Positions 615 to 13,318 of a DNA stretch of 24,000 nt are shown piece after piece. The notes beneath the pieces were generated by a model. The model was not told the DNA's origin. It saw nothing but the letters and a program-made list of their open reading frames with translations, and made no database searches. A program made the translations under genes and the position numbers. Position 1 is the first letter of the stretch; each line of letters opens with the position of its first letter. This DNA is from an uncultured Enterovibrio sp. (GTDB taxonomy: Bacteria > Pseudomonadota > Gammaproteobacteria > Enterobacterales > Vibrionaceae): contig CAMRBZ010000013.1 of assembly GCA_947040595.1 (NCBI GenBank), positions 5,730 to 29,729 of the forward strand, written 5' to 3'.

Positions 615-3600
615 TTGACTGCCTCAACCCATAAAAACAATGCACCGACACTCTTTGCCGCTCTTAATGAATGCATGCTGAAAGACCGATTTCGTCTTTC
701 TAAGCGGATAAAAGGCGCGCAGCGGATCAGCCAAGAAGCGCCGCGCTTAAAAGCATTTGATCACATTGCTCTCGACATAGCAAAATCCATGCAGCAGCGC
801 ATTATGCGTAAAAATAATACCTCAAAGATAGATTTTCCTGAGGCGTTACCCGTAAGCCAAATGAAAGAAGAGATTGCTGAGGCGATTTCGCGTCATCAAG
901 TTTTGATTTTGGCAGGAGAGACGGGCTCAGGTAAAACCACACAGCTCCCTAAAATTTGCATGGAGCTTGGCTTCGGTGTCTCAGGCTTTATTGGGCATAC
1001 TCAGCCTCGCCGTTTGGCCGCGCGCACGGTGGCCACACGAATCGCACAAGAGATGAACACCGAGCTTGGGAACCTGGTTGGGTACAAGGTGCGTTTTAAC
1101 GATAAGGTCAGTGAAAATTCACGTGTAAAACTCATGACGGATGGGATTTTATTGGCTGAAATTCAACATGATAGGTATTTAAATCAATACGATTGTATCA
1201 TCATTGATGAAGCCCATGAACGCAGTCTTAATATTGATTTTATTCTGGGTTATTTAAAGCAACTCTTGCCTAAACGGCCCGATTTAAAACTGATTATTAC
1301 CTCGGCCACCATAGATCCTGAACGATTTTCTGCGCATTTTGAAAATGCCCCGATCATCGAGGTTTCAGGGCGCACGTTTCCTGTGGAAGTGCGTTACCGT
1401 GCAGCTTTAGACAAAGAAGAAGAAACTGAACGTGATCCGCTTCAGGGGATTTTTGATGCAGTTGATGAATTACAAGAAGAAAAATCCGGCGACATTTTGA
1501 TTTTTATGAGTGGAGAGCGGGAAATCAGAGACACCGCAGAAGCCTTGAAAAAAAGACACTTGCGTGACACTGAAATCGTTCCTCTTTATGCGCGTTTGTC
1601 TTCTTCCGAACAAAATAGAGCCTTTCAGAGCCATATAGGGCGTCGTATTGTATTGGCGACAAACGTGGCTGAAACCTCGGTAACGGTACCGGGCATTAAA
1701 TACGTGATCGATCCTGGAACCGCACGTATCTCTCGTTACAGTTACCGCACTAAAGTGCAACGATTGCCTATAGAGCCTATTTCTCAAGCTAGTGCAAATC
1801 AGCGTAAAGGACGTTGCGGGCGTCTTTCTGACGGTATCTGTATCCGTCTTTATTCAGAAGAAGATTTTTTGTCGCGCCCAGAATTTACTGATCCTGAGAT
1901 TTTTAGGACTCATCTTGCAAGCGTGATTTTACAAATGACCGCGATAGGTCTAGGTGATATTGCTGCGTTTCCTTTTGTGCAAGCCCCTGACAGCCGTCAT
2001 ATTTCAGACGGTGTTCGCTTGCTAGAAGAGCTTGGGGCCATGAAAGAGGGAGAAAAAGGCGCCCCTAAAAGCCTGACTGAACGGGGTTATGCGCTCTCAA
2101 AATTACCCACAGATCCGCGTTTAGGCCGCATGGTGTTAGAAGGGGCCAAGATGGGGGCGTTAGAGGAAATGATGATCATTGCCTCCGCCTTGTCTATTCA
2201 AGATCCCAGAGAACGTCCCTTAGAGAAACAATTTGCCTCGGATGAAAAACACCGCCGATTTTTAGACAAGACCTCCGATTTTGTTTCCTACATCAATTTA
2301 TGGAATTATCTTGCAGATCAACAAAAAAGCCTTTCTGTTAATCAGTTTAGAAAGCAATGTAAAAGTGATTATCTCAATTATTTGCGTGTGCGTGAGTGGC
2401 AAGACGTCCATTTTCAAATACGCCAAGTGGTCCGAGAGCTGGGTTACAAGATAAACCAAGAGCCCGCGGATTATCTTTGTGTGCATGTGTCTTTGTTGGC
2501 CGGTCTTTTGTCTCATATTGGTCTGAAAGATATGGAAAAAAATGAATACCAAGGCGCGCGCAATGCCCGTTTTAGTCTTTTTCCAGGCTCGGGTATTTTT
2601 AAAAAACAGCCTAAATGGGTCATTGTGGCGGAGTTGGTCGAAACGTCAAAACTGTGGGGGCGTGTGGCGGCCAAAATTGAGCCTGAATGGATTGAACCGC
2701 TTTGTCCGCATTTGATAAAACGCACGTACAGTGAGCCACACTGGGAGAAAAAACAAGAAGCAGTTATGGCTTATGAAAAAGTCATGTTGTATGGGATTGC
2801 CATTGTTGCAAAACGCAAAGTCAATTACAGCTTGATAGATCCCGTATTGTGTCGAGAGATTTTTATTCGCAGTGCGCTGGTGGAAGGTGAATGGACGAGC
2901 AAACATGCTTTTTATCATCAAAACCAAACGCTTCTCAATGAGGTCGAAGAATTAGAGCATAAATCGAGACGCCGAAATATTTTAGTGGACGATGAAACCT
3001 TGTATGCCTTTTATGATCAGCGTATTCATCACAGCATTGTATCAGGACGCGATTTTAACGCCTGGTGGAAAGAGACAAGTAAAGCGGAGCCTGAAAAACT
3101 CCATTTTGAAAAAGCCATGCTTTTGGCAAATGATGCAAGCCATATTACAGAGCTTGATTACCCTAATTTTTGGCACCAAGGGAATTTAAAATTAAAACTG
3201 AGCTATCACTTTGATCCGCAAAATCATCAAGACGGCGTGACAGTACACCTTCCTTTGCCGATTTTAAATCAAGTGCAATCGGGGGGGTTTGATTGGCAAA
3301 TCCCTGGGCTACGTGAAGAGCTGGTGGTGGCCTTGATTAAATCCCTGCCCAAACCGTTACGTCGTCACTTTGTACCTGCCCCTAATTATGCATCTGCTTT
3401 TTTACAGCGTGTGACTGTGATGGAAATGCCCTTATTGGAGGCATTGGAAAAAGAGTTTAAGCGAATGACGGGTGTCTCTATACAAAGAGACGATTGGCGG
3501 GTGGATGCATTGCCTGAGCATTTAAAGATAACCTACCGCGTGGTGGGAGATAAAAATAAAACCTTGAATGAAAGCCATGATTTGCATGGGTTAAAAGAAA

Positions 3601-4514
3601 CGTTAAAAGAACAGATACAAGAAACCTTGTCTCAAGTTGCGGATGATGACATCGAGCAGCAAGGTTTAACGACCTGGAGTTTTGGGGCGTTAACCAAGGT
3701 GTATGAGCAAAAGCGTGCTGGATTTGAAGTGAAAGCCTTTCCTGCCATTGTGGACAACAAGGACTCGGTCGGGATCAAACTCTTCGAAACTGAAGAAGAG
3801 CAACAGCAGGCCATGAAGCAAGGTGAGCGACGTTTGGTCTTATTGAATGTCCCTTCTCCGATAAAATACTTGCACGAACATCTTCCCAATAAATCTAAAT
3901 TAGGTTTGTACTTTAACGCTTATGGGCGTGTTCTTGATTTAATTGATGATTGTATTGCCTGTGGCGTTGATTTTTTGATTGAATCAAAGGGAGGGGTTGT
4001 TTGGGAGCCTCAAAAATTTGAGGCTCTTAAAGAAGGTGTGCGTGGCGAATTAGGGGATTGTGTATTGGAGATCGCAAAGCAAGTTGAACGGATTTTAACA
4101 ACGGCCTTTAACATCAATAAAAAGCTGAAAGGGAAAATCGATTTCACTATGGCGTTTGCTTTGTCTGATATCAAAGCGCAAATGGCAGGCCTTATTTATA
4201 AAGGGTTTGCAACGGAGTCTGGTTGTGCGCGCTTGCCTGATATTGAGCGCTATCTTTTCGCGATTGAGCGACGATTAGAAAAACTGCCCATCGACCCGAA
4301 TAAAGACCGATTACACATGATCAAATTGGAGGCTGTGACATTGGAATACAAAGCCTTAATCAATCGTTTTCAAAGAGGTCAAAAAATTCCTGGTGCGGTA
4401 AAAGAGATCCGCTGGATGATAGAAGAGCTTCGAGTGAGTTATTTTGCACAACAATTGGGGACGCCGTACCCCATCTCCGATAAGCGCATTCAAAATGCCA
4501 TTGCCAGTGTTTAG
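615..4514 (+). CDS. hrpA: ATP-dependent RNA helicase HrpA (DEAH-box), 1299 aa, apparent TTG start
   Basis: Walker A GETGSGKTTQ, DEAH box IIIDEAHERS, and length and N-terminus (..LMLKDRFRLSKR..) like E. coli HrpA (1300 aa). No in-frame ATG lies near the N-terminus, so TTG at 615 is used. Confidence 0.95.
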   Translation: MTASTHKNNAPTLFAALNECMLKDRFRLSKRIKGAQRISQEAPRLKAFDHIALDIAKSMQQRIMRKNNTSKIDFPEALPVSQMKEEIAEAISRHQVLILAGETGSGKTTQLPKICMELGFGVSGFIGHTQPRRLAARTVATRIAQEMNTELGNLVGYKVRFNDKVSENSRVKLMTDGILLAEIQHDRYLNQYDCIIIDEAHERSLNIDFILGYLKQLLPKRPDLKLIITSATIDPERFSAHFENAPIIEVSGRTFPVEVRYRAALDKEEETERDPLQGIFDAVDELQEEKSGDILIFMSGEREIRDTAEALKKRHLRDTEIVPLYARLSSSEQNRAFQSHIGRRIVLATNVAETSVTVPGIKYVIDPGTARISRYSYRTKVQRLPIEPISQASANQRKGRCGRLSDGICIRLYSEEDFLSRPEFTDPEIFRTHLASVILQMTAIGLGDIAAFPFVQAPDSRHISDGVRLLEELGAMKEGEKGAPKSLTERGYALSKLPTDPRLGRMVLEGAKMGALEEMMIIASALSIQDPRERPLEKQFASDEKHRRFLDKTSDFVSYINLWNYLADQQKSLSVNQFRKQCKSDYLNYLRVREWQDVHFQIRQVVRELGYKINQEPADYLCVHVSLLAGLLSHIGLKDMEKNEYQGARNARFSLFPGSGIFKKQPKWVIVAELVETSKLWGRVAAKIEPEWIEPLCPHLIKRTYSEPHWEKKQEAVMAYEKVMLYGIAIVAKRKVNYSLIDPVLCREIFIRSALVEGEWTSKHAFYHQNQTLLNEVEELEHKSRRRNILVDDETLYAFYDQRIHHSIVSGRDFNAWWKETSKAEPEKLHFEKAMLLANDASHITELDYPNFWHQGNLKLKLSYHFDPQNHQDGVTVHLPLPILNQVQSGGFDWQIPGLREELVVALIKSLPKPLRRHFVPAPNYASAFLQRVTVMEMPLLEALEKEFKRMTGVSIQRDDWRVDALPEHLKITYRVVGDKNKTLNESHDLHGLKETLKEQIQETLSQVADDDIEQQGLTTWSFGALTKVYEQKRAGFEVKAFPAIVDNKDSVGIKLFETEEEQQQAMKQGERRLVLLNVPSPIKYLHEHLPNKSKLGLYFNAYGRVLDLIDDCIACGVDFLIESKGGVVWEPQKFEALKEGVRGELGDCVLEIAKQVERILTTAFNINKKLKGKIDFTMAFALSDIKAQMAGLIYKGFATESGCARLPDIERYLFAIERRLEKLPIDPNKDRLHMIKLEAVTLEYKALINRFQRGQKIPGAVKEIRWMIEELRVSYFAQQLGTPYPISDKRIQNAIASV

Positions 4515-4564
4515 ACTTTAACCTGCTTTGGTTTTTTAAAAGAATGATCATGAAACAATAAGAT

Positions 4565-4592
4565 AACGCGCATTCATGGCGCGTTTTTTTTT
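4565..4592 (+). terminator. Rho-independent terminator of hrpA
   Basis: Stem AACGCGC/GCGCGTT with a 7-nt loop, followed by a run of 9 T. Confidence 0.8.
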
Positions 4593-4636
4593 AATGTCTC
4601 ACACTCTTTATTCCTTTTCATTTTTTGGCGTCTCGA

Positions 4637-5512
4637 ATGAACCGATTCTTTTTCATAAAAAAGGCCCCGCTTGCATTGGTTGTTTCTCTTGTTCTTTTTT
4701 CGAATGGCGCTCTGGGGGTTCAGCCTGTTTTGCCTGTTGCGCCTTTGTTGGCGATTTCGTATAACAATGAACGCGCGTTGGATTGGGGCCAGTATCTTTA
4801 CAGTGAAAAATTGGATGGGATCAGGGCCATTTGGACAGGAACCGAATTAAGGACAAAGCAAGGGACACGTCTTTTTGCGCCAGAATGGTTTATTGAGAGA
4901 TTGCCAGATTATCCTGTCGAAGGAGAGCTTTGGGCAGGACGCGGCACGTTTGAATATCTTATGTCAGTGGTTTTAGATAAAACCCCTAACGCGCAAGAGT
5001 GGAAAAAGGTGCAGTTTATGCTTTTTGATTTACCCGGGGATCAGGGGGATTATTCCGCTCGTTATCAGGCTTTGCGTGAACTGGTACAAGAGATAGGACA
5101 AACACAGATACAATTCATTGAACATCATCCAGCTAAAAACGAAAAAGCGATAATGCAAGAGCTTGAACGCCGTGTTCTTTTAGGGGCCGAAGGGCTTATT
5201 TTACGAGATAAAAAGGCATTGTATGTTTCAGGGCGAGACGAGGGTGTTCAAAAATTAAAAGTAACCCAAGACGCAGAAGCCCAAGTGTTGAGGTATTTTG
5301 AAGGAAAAGGAAAGTACAAAGGAAAAATGGGATCCATTCTTGTTAAAATGGACAATGGTAAAACCTTTAAAATTGGCACAGGATTCACTGATGAACAAAG
5401 AATGAATCCACCAAAGATAGGCAGCAAAGTAACTTATCTCTTTAATGGTGTAACGAAAAAAGGGATCCCTAAATTTGCGCGTTATTGGAGAACGGACATC
5501 ACCAAGCAATGA
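4637..5512 (+). CDS. ligE: Minimal ATP-dependent DNA ligase with N-terminal signal peptide (Lig E class, predicted periplasmic)
   Basis: Nucleotidyltransferase motif I SEKLDGIRA (KxDG), motif III FMLFDL, motif IV AEGLILR, motif V VQKLKV. The N-terminus MNRFFFIKKAPLALVVSLVLFSNGALG is signal-peptide-like. Start placed at the ATG at 4637 inside the ORF that opens at 4625. Confidence 0.85.
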   Translation: MNRFFFIKKAPLALVVSLVLFSNGALGVQPVLPVAPLLAISYNNERALDWGQYLYSEKLDGIRAIWTGTELRTKQGTRLFAPEWFIERLPDYPVEGELWAGRGTFEYLMSVVLDKTPNAQEWKKVQFMLFDLPGDQGDYSARYQALRELVQEIGQTQIQFIEHHPAKNEKAIMQELERRVLLGAEGLILRDKKALYVSGRDEGVQKLKVTQDAEAQVLRYFEGKGKYKGKMGSILVKMDNGKTFKIGTGFTDEQRMNPPKIGSKVTYLFNGVTKKGIPKFARYWRTDITKQ

Positions 5513-5553
5513 AAAGGGGTGCGGGGGAGTCAAAAGAAAATAAAAGAAAAAAG

Positions 5554-5592
5554 AAACCGCCTTTTTCAATCTTTATACGAGAAAGGCGGTTT
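5554..5592 (-). terminator. fabA terminator hairpin, possibly also used by the convergent ligase gene
   Basis: 11-bp stem AAACCGCCTTT/AAAGGCGGTTT with a 17-nt loop. On the minus strand it is followed by TTCTTTTTT. Confidence 0.6.
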
Positions 5593-5615
5593 TAAAGAGG
5601 ATAAATAAAAAGAGA

Positions 5616-6134
5616 TTAAAAGGTTGAGGTGTCTTTAAATAAACCGACTTTAAGATCTTTTGCGACGTAGATTTCTTTTCCGTCAACAAGGACGCGACCG
5701 TCTGCCACGCTCATGACGAGTTTCCGATTAATAAGGCGTTTTATTTGGAGTTCATAAACGACTTTCTTGGCTGTTGGCAATACTTGCCCTGAAAATTTCA
5801 CTTCTCCGACACCCAAGGCTCTGCCTTTTCCTTCTCCTCCAATCCAGCCGAGGTAAAATCCAACGAGTTGCCACATGGCGTCAAGACCTAAGCAACCCGG
5901 CATGACGGGATCACCGATAAAATGGCAATCAAAAAACCAAAGTTCTGGGTGTATGTCTAATTCTGCGATAAGTTGGCCTTTTCCAAATTCGCCTCCCTCA
6001 TCTGTGATGCTTTTTATTCTGTCGATCATGAGCATGTTCGGTGCTGGCAACAATGGACTTTCTGGCCCAAACAGCTCTCCCTGGCTTGCAGCTATCAGAT
6101 CTTCTTTAGTATAAGATGGGTGTTTAATGTGCAT
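5616..6134 (-). CDS. fabA: 3-hydroxydecanoyl-ACP dehydratase/isomerase FabA
   Basis: 172 aa, colinear with E. coli FabA, including the active-site region [24 protein letters not shown]. Confidence 0.97.
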
Positions 6135-6167
6135 TTGTTCGTTCCTATTAGAAGAATAGAGCCAGGC

Positions 6168-6187
6168 TAGCGTACACTTGTACGCTA
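6168..6187 (-). promoter_or_regulatory. FabR-type operator palindrome TAGCGTACA-ct-TGTACGCTA upstream of fabA
   Basis: 9-bp perfect arms, 34 bp upstream of the fabA ATG. From memory it closely matches the E. coli fabA/fabB FabR site (GCGTACA..TGTACGC core). Confidence 0.65.
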
Positions 6188-6203
6188 ATCAAATCGGATC
6201 AGT
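6188..6203 (-). promoter_or_regulatory. FadR-like site abutting the FabR operator
   Basis: The minus strand reads ACTGATCCGATTTGATT directly 5' of the FabR palindrome, the same juxtaposition as E. coli fabA (ACTGATCGGACTTGTTC then AGCGTACA..). It overlaps the ycbZ stop codon (6199-6201). Confidence 0.5.
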
Positions 6204-7917
6204 GTTGATTTAGCCAGTTTTTAAGTGAATTTATGAAAGAAATGCGACGTGGTTCAGGATGATGCAAGGATTCTATTCGTTCAGCCATTTTTTCTAGGAG
6301 GGAGGTGTCCTCTTGGTTTTCAGCCTGATTTTCGTTGTCGGGGTTTTCATCTGGAGAAAAAGGCAAGCCTGCTATTAAAGGAAACACCTCTTCAACATCT
6401 TCTACAGGCCAAAGATGAAAGTGACCTGTTTTAACCGATTCAATGATCTCTTGATTTAAACATAAAGAGCGTAAATTGGCTTTAGGAAAAATCACACCTT
6501 GCGTCCCACAGAGACCGCGATGGGCACAAATTTTATAGAAACCTTCAATTTTTTCATTGATTCCACCGATGGCTTGCACTCGACCAAATTGATCGACGGC
6601 CCCGGTAATGGCGATAGATTGCTTTAAAGGTTGTAAGGACAATGCACTGACGAAAGCACATAACTCGGCAAGAGAGGCACTGTCTCCATCGACTTCGCAA
6701 TATGATTGCTCAAAAACAATGGACGCGGAATACAAGCAAGGCTCTTCTAATTCAAGTGCGGCCTGCAAGAAGGCTTGCATGATGATCATCCCTTTCGCGT
6801 GAAGACTGCCACCTAACTCCACTTTTCGTTCGACATCCGTGATTTCACCGTCTCCAAAATGAACAACACAAGAAATACGGGCAGGCTCTCCATAAGCCAG
6901 AGGATGTCCGGGTATTTCAATGACACTCAGTCCATTGACTTGTCCTATTTGCTCACCGGATGTTTCAATAAAGACTTGCCCCATGAGGATGTCTTCTAAT
7001 CCCCGAGAGGGAAGGTAGGAGGCGCGAAAATGTTTTTCGGTGAGAGCCGCTTGTATGTCTTCTTGTTCAAGAACGGGATGGGTAGACAAAAGATGGGCTT
7101 CACGGAATAAGGATTGGTACCACAAAGGACACAGTGGCATGCGTTCATTGTCTTCTGTAAAGCGCGCTCCTGCTTGCATGACGCGTTTAATGGCCTCTGT
7201 TGAAAGAGGCTTAACCTGGGCTTGTACCTGAATGTATTTAATAATGGACAAATAATCTTGAACGCTGTCTTTTGAGAGGTGCATTTCTTCTTCGAATTCG
7301 CAATAATCGCAGAGGCTGTGTAAGTCAGGCTCTAATTCGTCAAAATCGGAAAGAAGTGCACGGTCGCCGATAAGAATGATCCGGGTGTGTAATGCTTCAC
7401 CTTCTGGTACCTCGCAATAGATATTGGGGTTTGCACTTTCCCACTCAATTCGTTGACGGCTTAATGTGACTTTTAAGCGTTTCCATACAGAAGGAGGACA
7501 AAGTAATAAATGGGTCAGAGAAAGAAGAAGAACACCGCCATTGGCTTTATGAAGCAAACCTGTCACTTTTTGAGAGGGAGACCCTTCTTGCTTGGAGGGG
7601 TATATCGCACCAAAAAGCTGTATTTCATTAAAACGATCTGCACAAATAATGGGAAATTCGTTTGAGGGGAGATGTTCAATGACGAGTTGCTGAATAATGT
7701 CATAATAATCGTAAATATCAGGGGCGATCACACATAAGAAATGAGGAAAACTGGATTCATGGATCAGTTTACGGATGGCCTTATTGAGACGCAATTGCAC
7801 TCGACTGTAAGGAGTATTGTTAAGCTCTGAAGAATGGTTAAGCTCTGAATAAGAATCAAGATCTTCTTGAATCGATGTAAATTGAGGCCTAAGAGATTGC
7901 CAGGTCATTTCTTGCAT
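6199..7917 (-). CDS. ycbZ: Lon-like protease YcbZ/LonH family (no Walker A seen)
   Basis: Colinear with E. coli YcbZ as I recall it: ANGGVLLLSL, FGEPARISCVVHFGDGE, catalytic Ser context EVDGDSASLAELCA, Lys context GGINEKIEGF. Start moved to MQEMTW (7917), since the upstream 24 codons of the ORF look non-coding. The fabA-ycbZ-matP order matches E. coli. Confidence 0.9.
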   Translation of the reverse strand: MQEMTWQSLRPQFTSIQEDLDSYSELNHSSELNNTPYSRVQLRLNKAIRKLIHESSFPHFLCVIAPDIYDYYDIIQQLVIEHLPSNEFPIICADRFNEIQLFGAIYPSKQEGSPSQKVTGLLHKANGGVLLLSLTHLLLCPPSVWKRLKVTLSRQRIEWESANPNIYCEVPEGEALHTRIILIGDRALLSDFDELEPDLHSLCDYCEFEEEMHLSKDSVQDYLSIIKYIQVQAQVKPLSTEAIKRVMQAGARFTEDNERMPLCPLWYQSLFREAHLLSTHPVLEQEDIQAALTEKHFRASYLPSRGLEDILMGQVFIETSGEQIGQVNGLSVIEIPGHPLAYGEPARISCVVHFGDGEITDVERKVELGGSLHAKGMIIMQAFLQAALELEEPCLYSASIVFEQSYCEVDGDSASLAELCAFVSALSLQPLKQSIAITGAVDQFGRVQAIGGINEKIEGFYKICAHRGLCGTQGVIFPKANLRSLCLNQEIIESVKTGHFHLWPVEDVEEVFPLIAGLPFSPDENPDNENQAENQEDTSLLEKMAERIESLHHPEPRRISFINSLKNWLNQH

Positions 7918-8076
7918 GTGTGGTTGCTTCAAGGTTATGAAATAGTAATTACATGAAGTATAAAGGATTACGACGGGGCAAAGTAGCAAAGAAACCGCGC
8001 AATGACCTACATTCTATGGACAAAGAGAAAGGAAAAACCGCGGATTATTTTTCGCTTGATAAAAATGGAATCAATT

Positions 8077-8089
8077 GTTACAGTGTAAC
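8077..8089. promoter_or_regulatory. matS-like palindrome GTTACAGTGTAAC upstream of matP
   Basis: Same 5-3-5 architecture as the matS consensus GTGACRNYGTCAC. The centre AGT fits RNY, with one symmetric change per arm (GTGAC to GTTAC). It lies 39 bp upstream of the matP ATG. Confidence 0.35.
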
Positions 8090-8127
8090 TATTGTGCTGT
8101 GTTTTCCTAGAGGTGATCCTGTATATT

Positions 8128-8577
8128 ATGAAATATCAACAACTTGAGAATCTAGAAGCTGGATGGAAATGGACCTATTTGGTTAAAAAACATAAAGAAG
8201 GCATCAATATCACACATTATATTGACACTTCAGAGACGCATGCAGCGATGCAATTGCTTTTATCGATGGAGCATAAACCTACAGAGGTTTCTTTATGGAT
8301 CCAAGAGCATATGCAAATAACTCTGGAGATAAAACTGAAACAAGCGATCAGAGCCAAGCGAAAACGCCACTTTAATGCTGAGCAAGAGCATACCCGTAAA
8401 AAATCAATTGATTTGGATTTTAGAGTGTGGGAGCGTTTATCAATAAAAGCCCATGAACTGGATGCAACCTTGTCTGATACCATTGAGTTTCTTCTTAGCG
8501 AAGAACACCGCTCTTACGATAAAAGTAAAAAGGTTGATGCTTTGAAAAAAGACCTTAATCGTTTACTTAGCTCATAA
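8128..8577 (+). CDS. matP: Macrodomain Ter protein MatP
   Basis: The N-terminus MKYQQLENLEAGWKWTYLVKKH and central RAKRKRHFNAEQEHTRKKSIDL are almost identical to E. coli MatP. Start set at the ATG at 8128 rather than the ORF opening at 8092. Confidence 0.95.
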   Translation: MKYQQLENLEAGWKWTYLVKKHKEGINITHYIDTSETHAAMQLLLSMEHKPTEVSLWIQEHMQITLEIKLKQAIRAKRKRHFNAEQEHTRKKSIDLDFRVWERLSIKAHELDATLSDTIEFLLSEEHRSYDKSKKVDALKKDLNRLLSS

Positions 8578-8708: not shown

Positions 8709-9548
8709 TTAGATCAGAGATTGGGCAAGCTCTCGTCCCGCGCCACGTTGTTCTTGCATCATTTCAAACACCGTCTCATCACACCCCAACATACTGTACT
8801 CAAGCTGGTGGAGTAGCCAGTCTTTTTTTGCTATCTCATCGTTTGAAAACGCATCCCAATTTTCATCGATTTTCCTCGCCAAATTGATCATGGCGGGCAA
8901 TTGGTGGTGTTCATCTTCTTGCGTGAAGGTAAATTGATTTGAAATGGCATAAATAAGCTTGTCTGTGAATTTCCAATTTTTCGCGAGAGTGCCTCCCACT
9001 TTTGCACAATCGGTATTTAATACAATTTGTTGTGCTTCAGGTTTCGATTTTCCAGCTTCCACATGGAGGGCGACCTTTTCTATTTTATCGGGATAAACCG
9101 TGTAAATCAGTAAATCGCCGATGTTATGGAGCATGGCGGCCGTAAAGGCTTCATTTTGATCGGCTTTGAGTTGTTTTGCTAAACTTTTGCAAAGTGTGGC
9201 CACTTCAAAGGTGGTCCCCCAAAAGATCTTTAAATCTAATCCGTCTATTTGAGGAAAAGAACTCATCAGGGCAGAGGCGGTGACAAGGGTGCGTATCGGG
9301 CCTAATCCCACGCGGATCACCGCCTCTTCGATTGAAGAAACGGATTTACCTCGGCCAAAATGTGCAGAATTGGATAAACGCAGAATACGCGCACTGATCA
9401 CGGGGTCTTGAGATATCTTTTCTGAGATTTTATTCATCTCGGCGTTTGGATGGTTTACAAGATCCATCAGCTCTTGAACGACTTTGGGTATTTTGGGCAT
9501 TTTATCGACTTGTGAGAGCAGATATTTCGTCGTCATGTTGAATTCCAT
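8709..9548 (-). CDS. HDOD domain protein (HD-related output domain, signalling-associated)
   Basis: Typical HDOD N-terminal pattern: PKIPKVVQELMDLVNHPNAEMNKISEKISQDPVISARILRLSNSAHFG...EEAVIRVGL. An alternative start is the ATG at 9536. Confidence 0.8.
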   Translation of the reverse strand: MEFNMTTKYLLSQVDKMPKIPKVVQELMDLVNHPNAEMNKISEKISQDPVISARILRLSNSAHFGRGKSVSSIEEAVIRVGLGPIRTLVTASALMSSFPQIDGLDLKIFWGTTFEVATLCKSLAKQLKADQNEAFTAAMLHNIGDLLIYTVYPDKIEKVALHVEAGKSKPEAQQIVLNTDCAKVGGTLAKNWKFTDKLIYAISNQFTFTQEDEHHQLPAMINLARKIDENWDAFSNDEIAKKDWLLHQLEYSMLGCDETVFEMMQEQRGAGRELAQSLI

Positions 9549-9677
9549 TTCAAGAGAAAAAACAGATATTTAAAAGTTTAAAACTAAATGGTGTTCTTTT
9601 TTTTTGTATGGCATTTTCGATATGGGAAAAAGCGATAAATGCGAGAAGGCCATTGTTTTTGAAACCTTATTTTCATT

Positions 9678-11348
9678 TCATTGCCTAATAATGACGTTTT
9701 TTGTTTTCTTGATAGGGGCCCTTTTTCTGATAGATTCTTTTCCTTTTTCGTATTGATAAAAATGAAAGAAATTTTTCCCGTTATTTTTGACGAAGTACAT
9801 TGATTCATCGGCTTTTTCAATGAGTTGTGATATCCCTAATCCGTGTTCTGGAAAAAGAGAAATACCAATACTTGAGCCGACATTTGCCAATTGTTCATGG
9901 CCAATTTCAATGGGTTGGGCAATTTGATATTGAAGATCTTCTGCGATGTCTGAAACGGCGCCTTTGTCGTTCTGTGAATACGAAAAGCCAATTAAAAATT
10001 CATCCCCCCCCCAGCGAGAAAGCACATCGGTCCCTCTGAAAAATTGTTTTATACGATTTGCGACAGCGGAGATCACCTTGTCGCCAGCATCATGCCCATA
10101 GGTGTCGTTGACCCGTTTAAAACCGTCTAAATCAATCATGAGGACGGCAAAATTTCGTCTTCTTTTTTCTGCATCTAGAATCGATTTTTCTAACTTTATC
10201 ATGCTCGCCCGCCGATTAAGCAGCAAGGTCATGGGGTCATGCTCGGCTTCATAGATGATATTTTGTTCACGCTCTGCACGCTCTGTAATGTCATAAACCA
10301 CCAATTCCAATACACTGTCGTCTGGATTGTTAATGTCTTCAACTTTAGAAAAAAGACAATGTACCCATTTATCAGGGACACGGACCTTGTGTTTTAATTG
10401 AATGTCGATGGCACAAAACTGGTTTCCCGGTTTTATCCAGAAATCGGCGATGAACTCTTTGACGTCTTGTGGGTTATAAAAATAGTCTGTGAAGTCGTTT
10501 TTTTTAATGGAATCACTGTCCACGATGAAGGTTTGCCCTATCAGGCGTAAAAGAGCTGGGTTTGCAACGATCAATTGATTGGTATTGTCAAGCAGTCCAA
10601 TACCGGCGCTGGCCCTTTCAAAAATCAAACGAAACTTTTTAGAGAGGTTTTCTGTTTTAGCGCGTAAGTCTCTTTCATTGTTTATTTTGTGATTGACCGC
10701 ATCCAGTAATTCATTGATGTCTCCCACCAAAGCCCCTATTTCATTGTGTTGATGTCCTTGTGGGGCTTTTAGACGGGTTCGGTCTCCAGGGGCGATGAGG
10801 TGAAAACGTTGTACCAAGTTTTTCATGGGTTTTGTGAGGATGCGGTTCACGATGTAGAGGGTGAGCAAGGTGACGATGATGGAGTAAAAAATAAGTAAGC
10901 TGACTTGTACTTTTGCCAAAGTGATGGCGTTATTTTCGATATAGTCATGATTTGGATAAATGATCAAATCGCCCATTTTCTCTTTTTTATTAAAAGGAGA
11001 GAGAATTGGAAAAACCATTTTTTTGTGGGTTGCCTTCACGCCGATTTCTGGCAAGGACAAAGAAAAGAGGCCTTTTTCTGTTGTGAGTTTTGAACCAGAA
11101 ATAATGTCGTTTGCTTGAAGTCCTTGAAGCACTTCATTGGCGAGCTCAAGATTCCCGAGGTACAAAGAGATGGCGGTATTTTTTTCAACGGTTTGAACGA
11201 TTTGTTTTATTTGTGTACGAGAATGGGTGAGCTCTTGATCATACGAAATAAAAAAGAAAATAACGGAAGCAAGGACGGTCATTGCGATCGCACCCGTCGC
11301 CACGCCCGTGGCGACGCGAATATGAATTTTCTTATTCAATATTTTCAA
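9678..11348 (-). CDS. Membrane diguanylate cyclase: TM, periplasmic loop, TM, HAMP, PAS, GGDEF (intact GGDEF and RxxD I-site), apparent TTG start
   Basis: Active-site motif RWGGDEF, with RGTD five residues upstream. Two hydrophobic helices (res ~13-35 and ~150-172) flank a loop of about 115 aa. A HAMP-like segment follows TM2. SD AAGGTGG lies 8-9 nt upstream of the TTG at 11348. Confidence 0.9.
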   Translation of the reverse strand: MKILNKKIHIRVATGVATGAIAMTVLASVIFFFISYDQELTHSRTQIKQIVQTVEKNTAISLYLGNLELANEVLQGLQANDIISGSKLTTEKGLFSLSLPEIGVKATHKKMVFPILSPFNKKEKMGDLIIYPNHDYIENNAITLAKVQVSLLIFYSIIVTLLTLYIVNRILTKPMKNLVQRFHLIAPGDRTRLKAPQGHQHNEIGALVGDINELLDAVNHKINNERDLRAKTENLSKKFRLIFERASAGIGLLDNTNQLIVANPALLRLIGQTFIVDSDSIKKNDFTDYFYNPQDVKEFIADFWIKPGNQFCAIDIQLKHKVRVPDKWVHCLFSKVEDINNPDDSVLELVVYDITERAEREQNIIYEAEHDPMTLLLNRRASMIKLEKSILDAEKRRRNFAVLMIDLDGFKRVNDTYGHDAGDKVISAVANRIKQFFRGTDVLSRWGGDEFLIGFSYSQNDKGAVSDIAEDLQYQIAQPIEIGHEQLANVGSSIGISLFPEHGLGISQLIEKADESMYFVKNNGKNFFHFYQYEKGKESIRKRAPIKKTKNVIIRQ

Positions 11349-11766
11349 ATCTGTATACCACCTTTAAGTTACCAATCACGGTTGCGTCATCTAAATAGGC
11401 AATGGCATTTTTGTTGTTTTGGACAAAGGTAACAATCTCTGGCCCGGATAATTTTGTTGTGGGGGGTTCTGCTTTTCCTGTAAAGAGGAGCCTGGCCCAA
11501 TAGGCGTTAATTTGGGCGATGGACTTGCCGACGAGACGTGAATAGAATTCAACTTTGATCTGGCTGTCTTGGGGGTGATCGGTTGTATTTGCAGTATGGC
11601 CATTTGGATAAGAATTAAACCGTCCCATGTAAATGTCAGTGAGTTGCCGTGATGAAAGGGCTTCGACGGGGTTGTTTTGATTGACGACCACAATCAAATC
11701 CGCATGCACATTCCCTTGCCAAGCGAGGAGGATCAGAGTGAGGTAGAGAAGACGGAGGAGGTCCAT
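11332..11766 (-). CDS. Small secreted PstS/PBP_like_2-type periplasmic binding-fold protein (144 aa)
   Basis: Signal peptide MDLLRLLYLTLILLAWQGNVHA. The mature part has the pattern I associate with short phosphate-binding-protein-like domains (IVVVNQNNPVEALSSRQLTDIYMG...AYWARLLFTGKAEPP...AIAYLD). It overlaps the DGC start by 17 nt. Confidence 0.7.
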   Translation of the reverse strand: MDLLRLLYLTLILLAWQGNVHADLIVVVNQNNPVEALSSRQLTDIYMGRFNSYPNGHTANTTDHPQDSQIKVEFYSRLVGKSIAQINAYWARLLFTGKAEPPTTKLSGPEIVTFVQNNKNAIAYLDDATVIGNLKVVYRFENIE

Positions 11767-13031
11767 CAGAAAATAAAACTGACACTGAAAGAGAGGGTAT
11801 CAATGTGCTCTGGCGCGTTCGTGTTTAAACTTGCTTCTGTGATCCCCCAGGCTCCAATGTGATTGGCTTTCAACCAGGTGCGTTCAATTTGGCCTTTTAG
11901 CGCGACATTTGAACCTAAATCAATTCTGACGCCTAATCCGAACGTTTCTTGGTCAATGATACGCGCATTGAGGGTGTTATTGATCATGTTATAGGCTGAG
12001 GCAATTTGTGGGATCATCAAACTGTTTGAAAGTGGGGCGCTCAATTCATATTGCGCGCCGATGGATTTTTCTTTTGACACAAAGCCATAAACGCTTGTGT
12101 TGTTAATGACGCGCCCAATACTGAGATAGGCCGCCGCTAAATCTGGAAAAAAGACCCATTCTGTGTCGGTGTAACTGATCTCTGATTGAACATTCCAGTC
12201 TCCAGTTTCATACAAGGCGCCCAGTGAAAAATAAGAAATGCGTGTATCCACAAATTTGAAATCAGAAGCAATTTGTTTGGCTTCGGGCCAGAGAAAGGAG
12301 ATCCCGGGGGTGTTATTTAAAAAGAGGGAAAAGCTCTGTGCTGGCTCTCCTTCTTTGACGTTTGTCGTGCTGCTGACGGCGGAGAATAACCAATCTTGAA
12401 CGGAATAACTGAATTTTACCCCGTAAATATGTGACAGCGTCACATTGTGAGTGGTGTCGATGGTTTCAATGCCAAGTTCTGAATAGCCTGAAAAAAGCCG
12501 CGTTTCAAAAATGCCTTCGCCAAGAGGAAAACGGTAAGAAATGTCCCCGCCATTGATATACGTGACCGGGATGGAAGCATAAAAACCGGTGATGGGTTTT
12601 GTCCAAAGGTAGGCAAAATTGACGTCTCTGTATTCTGAAAGCATGTATATCGGTGTTGCGATACGGCCGACTCTGATGGAGGTATGAGATGCAATATTGT
12701 ATCGAAGAAAGGCTAAAGTGAGGGTTTTGTTTAAATCATTGTCGAGTCTGTCTTGAAAAACGCCTTGTAGAACCACAGAGAAAGAATCACTGATTTTACT
12801 GTTCAGTTGAACGCCAAATGCGGAGCCCGTTTTGAGATCCCATTTATCATAAATCCCTGATTTTGTCAGATCGTAGAGGAATCCAATGTCTTGTGTTCCT
12901 GAGTGAATAAGACTGACGTTACCAAAACCACTCACACTGAAAATATCATCGGCCTCAAGATGAAAAGAGAGGGCGACGAGTGGAAGGGATAAAAGGGCGC
13001 TGGAAAGCCTCGATTTAGATGATCTAGACAT
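11766..13031 (-). CDS. Putative outer-membrane beta-barrel (porin-like) protein, 421 aa
   Basis: Signal peptide ending ..SFHLEA/DD, alternating amphipathic beta-strand pattern, aromatic C-terminus ..SFSVSFIF. Its TGA overlaps the ATG of the next gene by 1 nt (TGATG). Confidence 0.7.
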   Translation of the reverse strand: MSRSSKSRLSSALLSLPLVALSFHLEADDIFSVSGFGNVSLIHSGTQDIGFLYDLTKSGIYDKWDLKTGSAFGVQLNSKISDSFSVVLQGVFQDRLDNDLNKTLTLAFLRYNIASHTSIRVGRIATPIYMLSEYRDVNFAYLWTKPITGFYASIPVTYINGGDISYRFPLGEGIFETRLFSGYSELGIETIDTTHNVTLSHIYGVKFSYSVQDWLFSAVSSTTNVKEGEPAQSFSLFLNNTPGISFLWPEAKQIASDFKFVDTRISYFSLGALYETGDWNVQSEISYTDTEWVFFPDLAAAYLSIGRVINNTSVYGFVSKEKSIGAQYELSAPLSNSLMIPQIASAYNMINNTLNARIIDQETFGLGVRIDLGSNVALKGQIERTWLKANHIGAWGITEASLNTNAPEHIDTLSFSVSFIF

Positions 13032-13318
13032 GTCTCATTATTGTTTTCGATACATTTATTGTAAATATAAGACATATTTCTGAATGTGGCTTGAATTCTG
13101 CCTGTGAGCACAAGTAACCAAGCAGACGCTTTAAAGAAAAAGGATATTTTTTCGCAAAGACGGTCCTTGCCCCTTACTGGACGTGTTTTTTTAGCGCAAG
13201 ATCCTTTCTTTTTGTTTAAAAATCAGAGCTAAAGAAAAGAGGATGACGGAAGGATTTGTTCATTCACCATGGTATGCTTTTCAATGAAGGCCTCATCAGT
13301 AAGCCGAATAAAAATCCA

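Follow-up and report, generated by a model that had tools for sequence, protein, structure and literature searches.

Three overlapping genes for an outer-membrane barrel, a small secreted protein and a membrane-bound diguanylate cyclase raise the question of whether their products act together across the envelope and, if so, what they respond to. They lie on the minus strand of a 24,000-nt stretch of DNA from an uncultured Enterovibrio sp. (assembly GCA_947040595.1, contig CAMRBZ010000013.1, positions 5,730 to 29,729), here called the window. In the list of its open reading frames (ORFs), the barrel gene (11766..13031) encodes 421 aa ending in ...SFIF, the next gene (11332..11766) encodes a 144-aa relative of periplasmic binding proteins (PBPs), hereafter the mini-PBP, and the cyclase gene (9678..11348), with a TTG start, encodes 556 aa. 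The barrel and mini-PBP genes have one base in common within a TGATG stop/start overlap (11764..11768), and the mini-PBP and cyclase genes overlap by 17 nt in a coupling junction (11332..11364), where the mini-PBP stop codon is at 11332-11334 and AAGGTGG (11364..11358), a Shine-Dalgarno sequence internal to the mini-PBP gene, lies 9 nt upstream of the cyclase TTG (11348). Both overlaps and the internal Shine-Dalgarno sequence had been noted in a first, sequence-only reading of the window, and they are confirmed here.

We scanned one genome per species for relatives of the mini-PBP, which gave 186 stretches encoding one, and the best 80 distinct loci were analysed with 7-kb flanks, our own ORF calls and phmmer. 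A barrel homologue adjoined the mini-PBP gene in all 80 loci, none of them from the genome of the window, and a cyclase with a homologous N-terminal module was directly adjacent on the same strand in 64 of them. Two gene orders were found, namely barrel, mini-PBP, cyclase (49 loci) and mini-PBP, barrel, cyclase (15 loci, all from the Alteromonas/Glaciecola group), and four more loci (L041, L064, L076 and L078) encode the cyclase nearby in another arrangement, bringing the total to 68/80. Overlap or near-abutment is the rule among these relatives: measured to the longest-ORF starts, the median distances at the coupled junctions are -1, -14 and -20 nt, with -1 nt from the barrel gene to the mini-PBP gene (63 loci) and -14 nt between the mini-PBP stop and the longest-ORF start of the cyclase (the 49 loci of the first order). 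The overlapping, envelope-spanning unit described in the sequence-only reading is borne out, and shown to be conserved, by the neighbourhood survey.

The trio occurs mostly in marine bacteria and spans several orders of Gammaproteobacteria; its carriers include Vibrionaceae, Alteromonadales, Shewanella, Marinomonas, Ketobacteraceae, Thiobacillaceae, Nitrosomonas and Desulfuromonadales, and a Steroidobacteraceae locus has the same trio. Furthermore, an acidobacterial locus (L082) encodes the barrel, the mini-PBP and a 317-aa protein (6423-7376) that has the same transmembrane (TM)-periplasmic-TM-HAMP module (hhalign against the cyclase module, 99.9%, E 4e-33) and no GGDEF domain, in place of which the protein ends in ~85 residues without a Pfam match. 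In a reciprocal check, a barrel homologue of only 27% identity was again adjoined by a 140-aa protein and a GGDEF protein, while searches from distant barrel homologues returned either the same neighbours or the pair without a sensor. All-against-all clustering of the 80 loci revealed no fourth gene common beyond close relatives; one candidate, a signalling-protein cluster in 14 loci, was rejected, as it consisted of unrelated kinases and regulators at varying positions. The arrangement is far from chance, and the trio is very probably a conserved functional module.

We then investigated the mini-PBP, a secreted protein of 13 kDa with a signal peptide ending in ...NVHA. Its sole family match is a partial one to PBP_like_2 (24.4 bits against a cut-off of 27, profile positions 90-190 of 267 only), so that the protein falls short of both the family threshold and the length of a two-lobed PstS (about 250-340 aa). 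The AlphaFold2 (AF2) model is a confident single domain (predicted local distance difference test (pLDDT) score 88.4), for which the best Foldseek matches in the PDB were the PstS-family phosphate-binding proteins 1twy, 4gd5, 4q8r and 4exl (E ~1e-6). About half of each target was covered, and the TM-score was 0.64 by query length but 0.38 by target length, suggesting that the mini-PBP corresponds to one lobe. In sequence alignments it maps to the uninterrupted central part of PstS-like chains, the part that makes up lobe II in type II binding proteins. The model and the alignments together indicate that the mini-PBP is one complete lobe, lobe II, of a PstS-type (type II) binding protein, and it looks like an excised lobe with a signal peptide of its own. 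The earlier judgement that 144 aa are too few for a two-lobed PstS therefore holds, as the protein belongs to a single-lobe family and its fold model matches half of the PstS structures.

Its 81 close homologues are nearly all about 140-146 aa long and carry a signal peptide where full length. When the family profile was searched against 1.84 billion representatives, 4,881 clusters were retrieved at E<=1e-10; among the best 150, all but three measured 120-197 aa, and almost all 135-160 aa, the three exceptions being two tandem duplicates and one BlaR1/M56-like protein. Mini-PBPs form a stable, separate family, and the window gene is not a decayed pstS. As to the exceptions, P0164 and P0217 (292 and 286 aa) consist of two tandem copies, and P0135 (744 aa) has a BlaR1/M56-peptidase-like N-terminus followed by two mini-PBP copies, which hints that two lobes may form the working unit and that the fold is used elsewhere as an extracytoplasmic sensor domain.

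For the comparison of ligand sites we used the phosphate ligands of the established PstS structures. In the 1twy alignment, the PstS motif T-R-E-A-S-S-G-T-R faces D63-x-x-x-x-S68-x-x-R/K71 of the mini-PBP, and of the four lobe-II phosphate ligands the family keeps Ser only: where Arg, Gly and Thr stand in PstS, it has variable or hydrophobic residues, an invariant Asp of the family adjoins the Arg position, and all lobe-I ligands are missing together with lobe I. The strongest conservation in the family is instead found in a family-specific, aromatic helix and loop, INAYWARLLFSGRAxPP (in short, YW.RLLFSGR..PP). Since most of the ancestral ligand site is gone and a conserved aromatic surface element has been gained, the mini-PBP appears suited to binding partners as its main job. 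The mature part contains no cysteines, and neither pstCAB nor another ABC importer is linked to the family, as all-against-all clustering found no transporter gene family common to the 80 loci. Homology to YfiR, the small periplasmic partner of the cyclase YfiN, was considered and rejected, since hhalign of the family profile against E. coli YfiR aligned the signal peptide alone (probability 1.9%); Pfam and NCBIfam scans likewise gave no DUF4154 match for the window proteins.

The barrel protein has a signal peptide and a C-terminal Phe, as already noted from the sequence, and the AF2 model (pLDDT 82.8, about 16-18 strands) adds a porin match. No family scored above the Pfam and NCBIfam cut-offs (Porin_4, 15.8 bits against 27) and a PDB search by sequence gave no matches, while some homologues carry PF13609 (Porin_4) or bear the name 'porin'. 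The top Foldseek matches in the PDB were chitoporin, Omp32, OmpT and OmpF (E ~1e-12 to 1e-10), and the phosphate porin OprP came at rank 43, no closer than the general porins. The model thus indicates a porin fold of the trimeric general porin type, which may form an open solute channel and a trimer. Neither a lipobox nor an OmpA domain was found in the 421-aa protein by sequence inspection and family scans. Its best-conserved segment among 80 homologues is a loop (residues 126-157), in which mean column conservation reaches 0.70-0.73 for residues 131-150, versus 0.23-0.39 in three other long loops. It may be the counterpart of the pore-constricting L3 or, alternatively, a loop on the periplasmic side.

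The cyclase contains a GGDEF catalytic domain (residues 368-526, 9771..10247 on the minus strand; 140.7 bits in Pfam) located by family scan and motifs. The motif RGTDVLSRWGGDEF at residue 438 comprises the RGTD I-site (438-441) and the GGDEF active site (447-451), so that the RxxD inhibitory site is present five residues upstream of the active site; across the homologous cyclases, GGDEF is intact in 67/68 and the I-site is present in 37/68. Two hydrophobic segments (residues ~14-36 and ~147-169) enclose a periplasmic stretch of ~110 residues, delimited as the sensor domain by hydropathy and family alignment (residues ~37-146, 10911..11240). On the cytoplasmic side follow a HAMP domain (residues 167-218, 10695..10850; Pfam HAMP 22-24 bits, cut-off 25), also found in 25 of 31 family members, and a PAS domain (residues ~238-356, 10281..10637), for which PAS_8 and PAS_9 gave weak matches below cut-off and which is optional, being absent from five homologous cyclases of 411-430 aa. 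The TM-loop-TM-HAMP-PAS-GGDEF plan proposed earlier, with intact GGDEF and RxxD, was thus recovered, HAMP and PAS scoring just under their cut-offs.

A word-indexed protein search with the cyclase N-terminus returned two matches, and the sensor family was therefore studied from the fetched loci. The N-terminal module aligns well across 31 relatives, with the conserved periplasmic motifs QL..TVE.TAAIAAYL and L.SPF...E..G.L.I.PN. No Pfam family was found for the periplasmic domain, CHASE8, the type present in YfiN, matching weakly in only 4/31 members (best E 0.005). The whole module matches NF053592 ('sensor histidine kinase, YfiR-like protein-associated') in 30/31 members and, weakly, the NCBIfam DgcN/YfiN model in 19/31. 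The periplasmic part alone gave weak matches to YfiN-type models in 2/10 members, and against E. coli DgcN it scored weakly (4.4 bits, rank 5 in a list with 2,000 shuffles), indicating that the YfiN-type matches stem mostly from TM2 and HAMP. A homology of the periplasmic domain to YfiN, at first suggested by the recurrent NCBIfam matches, is not claimed here, because testing the domain alone removed nearly all of the signal.

We therefore propose that the three genes form one operon for an envelope-spanning input module of cyclic di-GMP (c-di-GMP) synthesis, working as a relay, and we put the probability of this reading, mechanism included, at roughly 55%. The porin-type barrel would sit in the outer membrane, and the mini-PBP, as a periplasmic co-sensor, would partition between the barrel and the periplasmic domain of the cyclase, with the balance set by a cue at or through the barrel, in the simplest case a solute other than phosphate. 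The cyclase would read the mini-PBP via its 110-residue periplasmic domain and pass the signal through TM2 and HAMP, usually also PAS, to the GGDEF domain, which in the window cyclase would in addition be product-inhibited through the RxxD site. The layout, folds, topology, catalytic motifs and the strict co-occurrence across phyla and gene orders are what we observe; from them we infer the contacts, the kind of cue, and activation or repression by the mini-PBP. That the products act together across the envelope is suggested because every locus has the barrel and mini-PBP genes side by side with hardly any gap, because the mini-PBP and sensor genes overlap, and because one sensor module follows the pair through changes of gene order and of output. 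The aromatic motif of the mini-PBP and the well-conserved 126-157 loop of the barrel also speak for the proposal. The relay itself is proposed since the YfiR, PahP and NspS/ScrB systems show the same logic.

Three points weigh against this proposal. In about eight complete loci no sensor gene adjoins the barrel/mini-PBP pair (L019, which has two pairs, at 3657-7399; L044 at 1982-3714; L025, L027, L038 and L056 at about 5660-7970; L088 at 4001-5689; and L073), so that the pair may do something by itself or work with a sensor whose gene lies elsewhere. Ordinary binding proteins, moreover, bind their ligands in a cleft that a single lobe lacks, and a solute cue would thus need a dimer or a composite site. 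Finally, the architecture of the cyclase is YfiN-like by sequence, while homology of the sensing domain to YfiN is unproven, because the periplasmic part alone gives almost nothing. There is also a bolder and more tentative version of the proposal, in which the mini-PBP would be a widespread natural 'half' binding protein rather than a Venus flytrap, forming a composite site as a homodimer or with the periplasmic domain of the cyclase and bridging porin and cyclase in one trans-envelope complex. The tandem P0164 and P0217 and the two-copy P0135 fit such a use of two lobes as the working unit. If true, this version would amount to a new c-di-GMP input mechanism and to a living example of the single-lobe stage proposed for binding-protein evolution.

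Several other explanations were weighed against the proposed relay. In a solute-free scheme of the YfiBNR type, the mini-PBP would be a constitutive repressor that the barrel removes upon perturbation of the outer membrane or cell wall, so that the module would report envelope stress or surface contact. Both systems occupy three compartments in the same way, the genes of the small protein and the cyclase overlap as do yfiR and dgcN in E. coli (11 nt), YfiR is likewise a single PBP-like lobe (PMC4655355), the mini-PBP has lost the ligand residues of PstS, and the NF053592 and YfiN matches (30/31 and 19/31 members) point the same way. However, the barrel has a porin fold without the lipobox and the OmpA-like peptidoglycan-binding domain, the absence of cysteines from the mature mini-PBP means that the redox switch of YfiR is absent, TM2 and HAMP account for most of the YfiN-type matches, which are gone when the periplasmic part is taken alone, and barrel/mini-PBP pairs without a cyclase occur, all of which makes this scheme rather unlikely. 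We regard as somewhat less likely still the small-anion sensing suggested by the sequence-only reading, in which phosphate, phosphonate or sulfate would enter via the barrel and be bound by the mini-PBP alone, which would then gate the cyclase. PstS-type phosphate-binding proteins do provide both the closest folds and the only family match, the family retains Ser68, at a helix N-terminus, as well as a basic residue at position 71, and OprP is among the fold matches of the barrel (rank 43). On the other hand, the Arg, Gly and Thr of T-R-E-x-S-S-G-T-R fall on variable or hydrophobic positions in the 1twy alignment, with an invariant Asp beside the Arg position, every lobe-I ligand is absent, OprP is no closer to the barrel than are general porins, and pst or phn genes are not conserved nearby in the 80 loci; with Ser alone kept of the four lobe-II ligands, and lobe I absent, small-anion sensing is not favoured.

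It is improbable that the barrel and the mini-PBP make up a self-contained uptake or structural pair, with the cyclase merely a frequent co-transcribed neighbour. The pair is indeed adjacent in 80/80 loci while the sensor is missing from some, and one metagenome-assembled genome (MAG) has three pairs and no adjacent cyclase; yet the sensor module co-occurs with the pair in 68/80 loci, through a change of gene order and with another kind of output, the cyclase gene begins within the gene upstream of it, and a single lobe is not known to dock to an ABC importer, none of which is encoded nearby. The partial PBP_like_2 match under its curated cut-off might also be taken to mean that the 144-aa ORF is a remnant of a decayed pstS in accidental juxtaposition, which the sequence-only reading had named as an outcome that would speak against it. 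This is refuted by the family size (4,881 clusters at E<=1e-10, the best 150 nearly all 135-160 aa), the uniform length and, in the complete sequences, the signal peptides of the 81 close homologues, the confident single-domain model and the conserved neighbourhood, leaving it a negligible chance.

The proposed relay has partial counterparts among known systems. YfiBNR/TpbB (HmsCDE), of Pseudomonas, E. coli and Yersinia, shares with the trio the three adjacent genes spanning outer membrane, periplasm and inner membrane, the cyclase plan TM-periplasmic-TM-HAMP-GGDEF with weak similarity in the TM/HAMP module, and a small secreted partner that is a single PBP-like alpha/beta lobe and whose gene overlaps the cyclase gene (PMC4655355). 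YfiR is similar to a single type I binding-protein lobe; it binds YfiN, and YfiB sequesters it (PMC4655355). In E. coli K-12 (L081 3876-5610), yfiR and dgcN overlap by 11 nt, a coupling as for the mini-PBP and cyclase genes. In contrast, the partner in the trio is predicted to be lobe II of the type II, PstS-like fold, whereas YfiR is a type I lobe-like DUF4154 protein; the two have no sequence similarity, and the 50 PDB fold matches listed for the mini-PBP do not include YfiR. The outer-membrane part is a predicted porin barrel here and an OmpA/Pal-like peptidoglycan-binding lipoprotein, YfiB, there; the window cyclase has an extra cytoplasmic PAS domain, and the gene order differs. The earlier opinion that the parts are unrelated to YfiBNR thus stands for the mini-PBP, which shows no YfiR similarity, and for the barrel, which is no OmpA-type lipoprotein, but needs qualification for the TM-HAMP module with its weak, recurrent YfiN-type matches.

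In the PahS-PahP-PahK/R system of Cycloclasticus, a cluster likewise combines genes for a barrel in the outer membrane, a binding protein in the periplasm and a sensor in the inner membrane, and PahP reportedly stays with the outer-membrane receptor PahS until ligand arrives and then passes to the kinase PahK (PMC10570129). This parked-then-moving binding protein is the mechanism proposed for the trio. By description, however, PahS is a 22-strand TonB-dependent receptor, PahP is two-lobed (318 aa), and the sensor is a histidine kinase without a periplasmic domain whose output is transcription and not c-di-GMP (PMC10570129). In NspS-MbaA and ScrB-ScrC of Vibrio, a solute-binding protein (SBP) encoded beside a membrane GGDEF-EAL protein controls it via its periplasmic domain (PMC8050422, PMC8079147). 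Unlike the mini-PBP, these partners are full two-lobed SBPs (SBP_bac_8 and SBP_bac_3), their sensors are dCache-like with GGDEF-EAL outputs, and there is no dedicated outer-membrane gene. The class of SBP-stimulated membrane receptors (Matilla, Ortega, Krell 2021) is marked by a binding protein that docks directly onto the extracytoplasmic domain of its receptor; for the mini-PBP and its cyclase the loci show genomic linkage, and such docking may occur.

Vibrio chitin sensing has ChiP as its porin step. The path from porin to periplasmic binding protein to inner-membrane sensor in ChiP/CBP/ChiS is similar to that proposed here (PMC8050422 for CBP and ChiS), and chitoporin is the top fold match of the barrel, though no better than other general porins; the genes do not form one overlapping operon, CBP is a 63-kDa SBP_bac_5 protein, and the output is a hybrid kinase. 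PstS (PBP_like_2), the closest family of the mini-PBP by sequence and fold, signals to the membrane receptor CtpL (PMC8050422), but differs in that the mini-PBP is apparently lobe II only, with non-conserved phosphate ligands, no pstCAB and the family helix YW.RLLFSGR..PP. By analogy, the trio would correspond to YfiBNR and PahSPK in logic, with different periplasmic and outer-membrane parts.

To our knowledge, the inputs of most c-di-GMP enzymes are not known, and YfiBNR is the main known three-compartment example. A 2021 review lists only two SBP-controlled GGDEF/EAL proteins (PMC8050422), and our literature searches, more than half of them aimed at such a system, found no characterised one of the composition of the trio, in agreement with the earlier reading. 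The mini-PBP family was absent from the usual model organisms in the genome sample, which may explain the lack of a published description. The trio appears to be a hitherto uncharacterised relay from the envelope to the cytoplasm; as an input module for c-di-GMP it is useful and rather unexpected, though no new principle. To the known examples it adds a small, conserved module, amenable to genetics and present in many marine Gammaproteobacteria as well as in other bacteria, that allows a channel in the outer membrane, an adaptor in the periplasm and a cyclase to be investigated as a set. Its most unusual element is the large unnamed family of natural single-lobe binding-protein relatives, since single-lobed forms are rarely reported and their purpose is unclear (PMC10601554); the family bears on the evolution of two-lobed binding proteins and on the reason for single-lobed versions. 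Its members are now annotated as 'phosphate ABC transporter substrate-binding protein' or 'hypothetical', the former probably wrongly.

Finally, we examined the gene downstream of the cyclase, which encodes a 279-aa HDOD protein (8709..9548, minus strand; 180 bits for the HDOD family). As the sequence-only reading had it, this gene follows on the same strand after a gap of 129 bp, in which a consensus scan found no terminator-like site; its implied membership of the unit was not upheld. Among the 80 loci, HDOD is present only in 14 from Enterovibrio/Grimontia, as part of their synteny, and in one unrelated locus, and NUDIX and DUF3581 genes separate it from the cyclase in 12-13 of the 14. HDOD is a lineage-specific neighbour and not a member of the module, and since NUDIX and DUF3581 intervene in these relatives, its adjacency in the window looks like a lineage-specific deletion of the two genes. 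They encode 151 and 253 aa, for example at 9126-10379 in L002, the window counterpart being 8709-9677; both the window and its 95% relative L001 are without them, with gaps of 129 and 122 bp, respectively.

Some features of single loci were also noted. The MAG mentioned above is from Pseudomonadales, and two of its three barrel/mini-PBP pairs are divergent in L019. In four Paraglaciecola species the pair is followed by a PqiA-like gene, and the 229-aa gene after the pair in L088 was tested as a sensor module and is not one. A record titled Flavobacterium sp. W21_SRS_FM6 (L035) carries a trio very like the gammaproteobacterial ones, with the gene coordinates of L040; misassignment or contamination of the record, or a transfer of the locus, could account for this.

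Upstream of the trio, the intergenic region shared with the divergent cobB (13032..13255) presumably contains the operon promoter. It holds one promoter-like hexamer pair (13065..13037), the number of such sites not exceeding that in shuffled sequence, and a perfect 10-bp palindrome, TGTGCTCACA (13103-13112), about 75 bp 5' of the barrel gene start; one palindrome of this kind per 224 bp is not unlikely by chance. An Rfam scan of the whole window matched no RNA family. The surroundings are ordinary chromosomal genes, with cobB divergent upstream, a polyamine-type transporter operon further up, and matP and a Lon-like protease gene downstream. The latter (6199-8577; LonB-type AAA domain and Lon_C) adjoins matP, a neighbourhood that we take to be the ycbZ-matP of E. 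coli, that is, ordinary conserved synteny.

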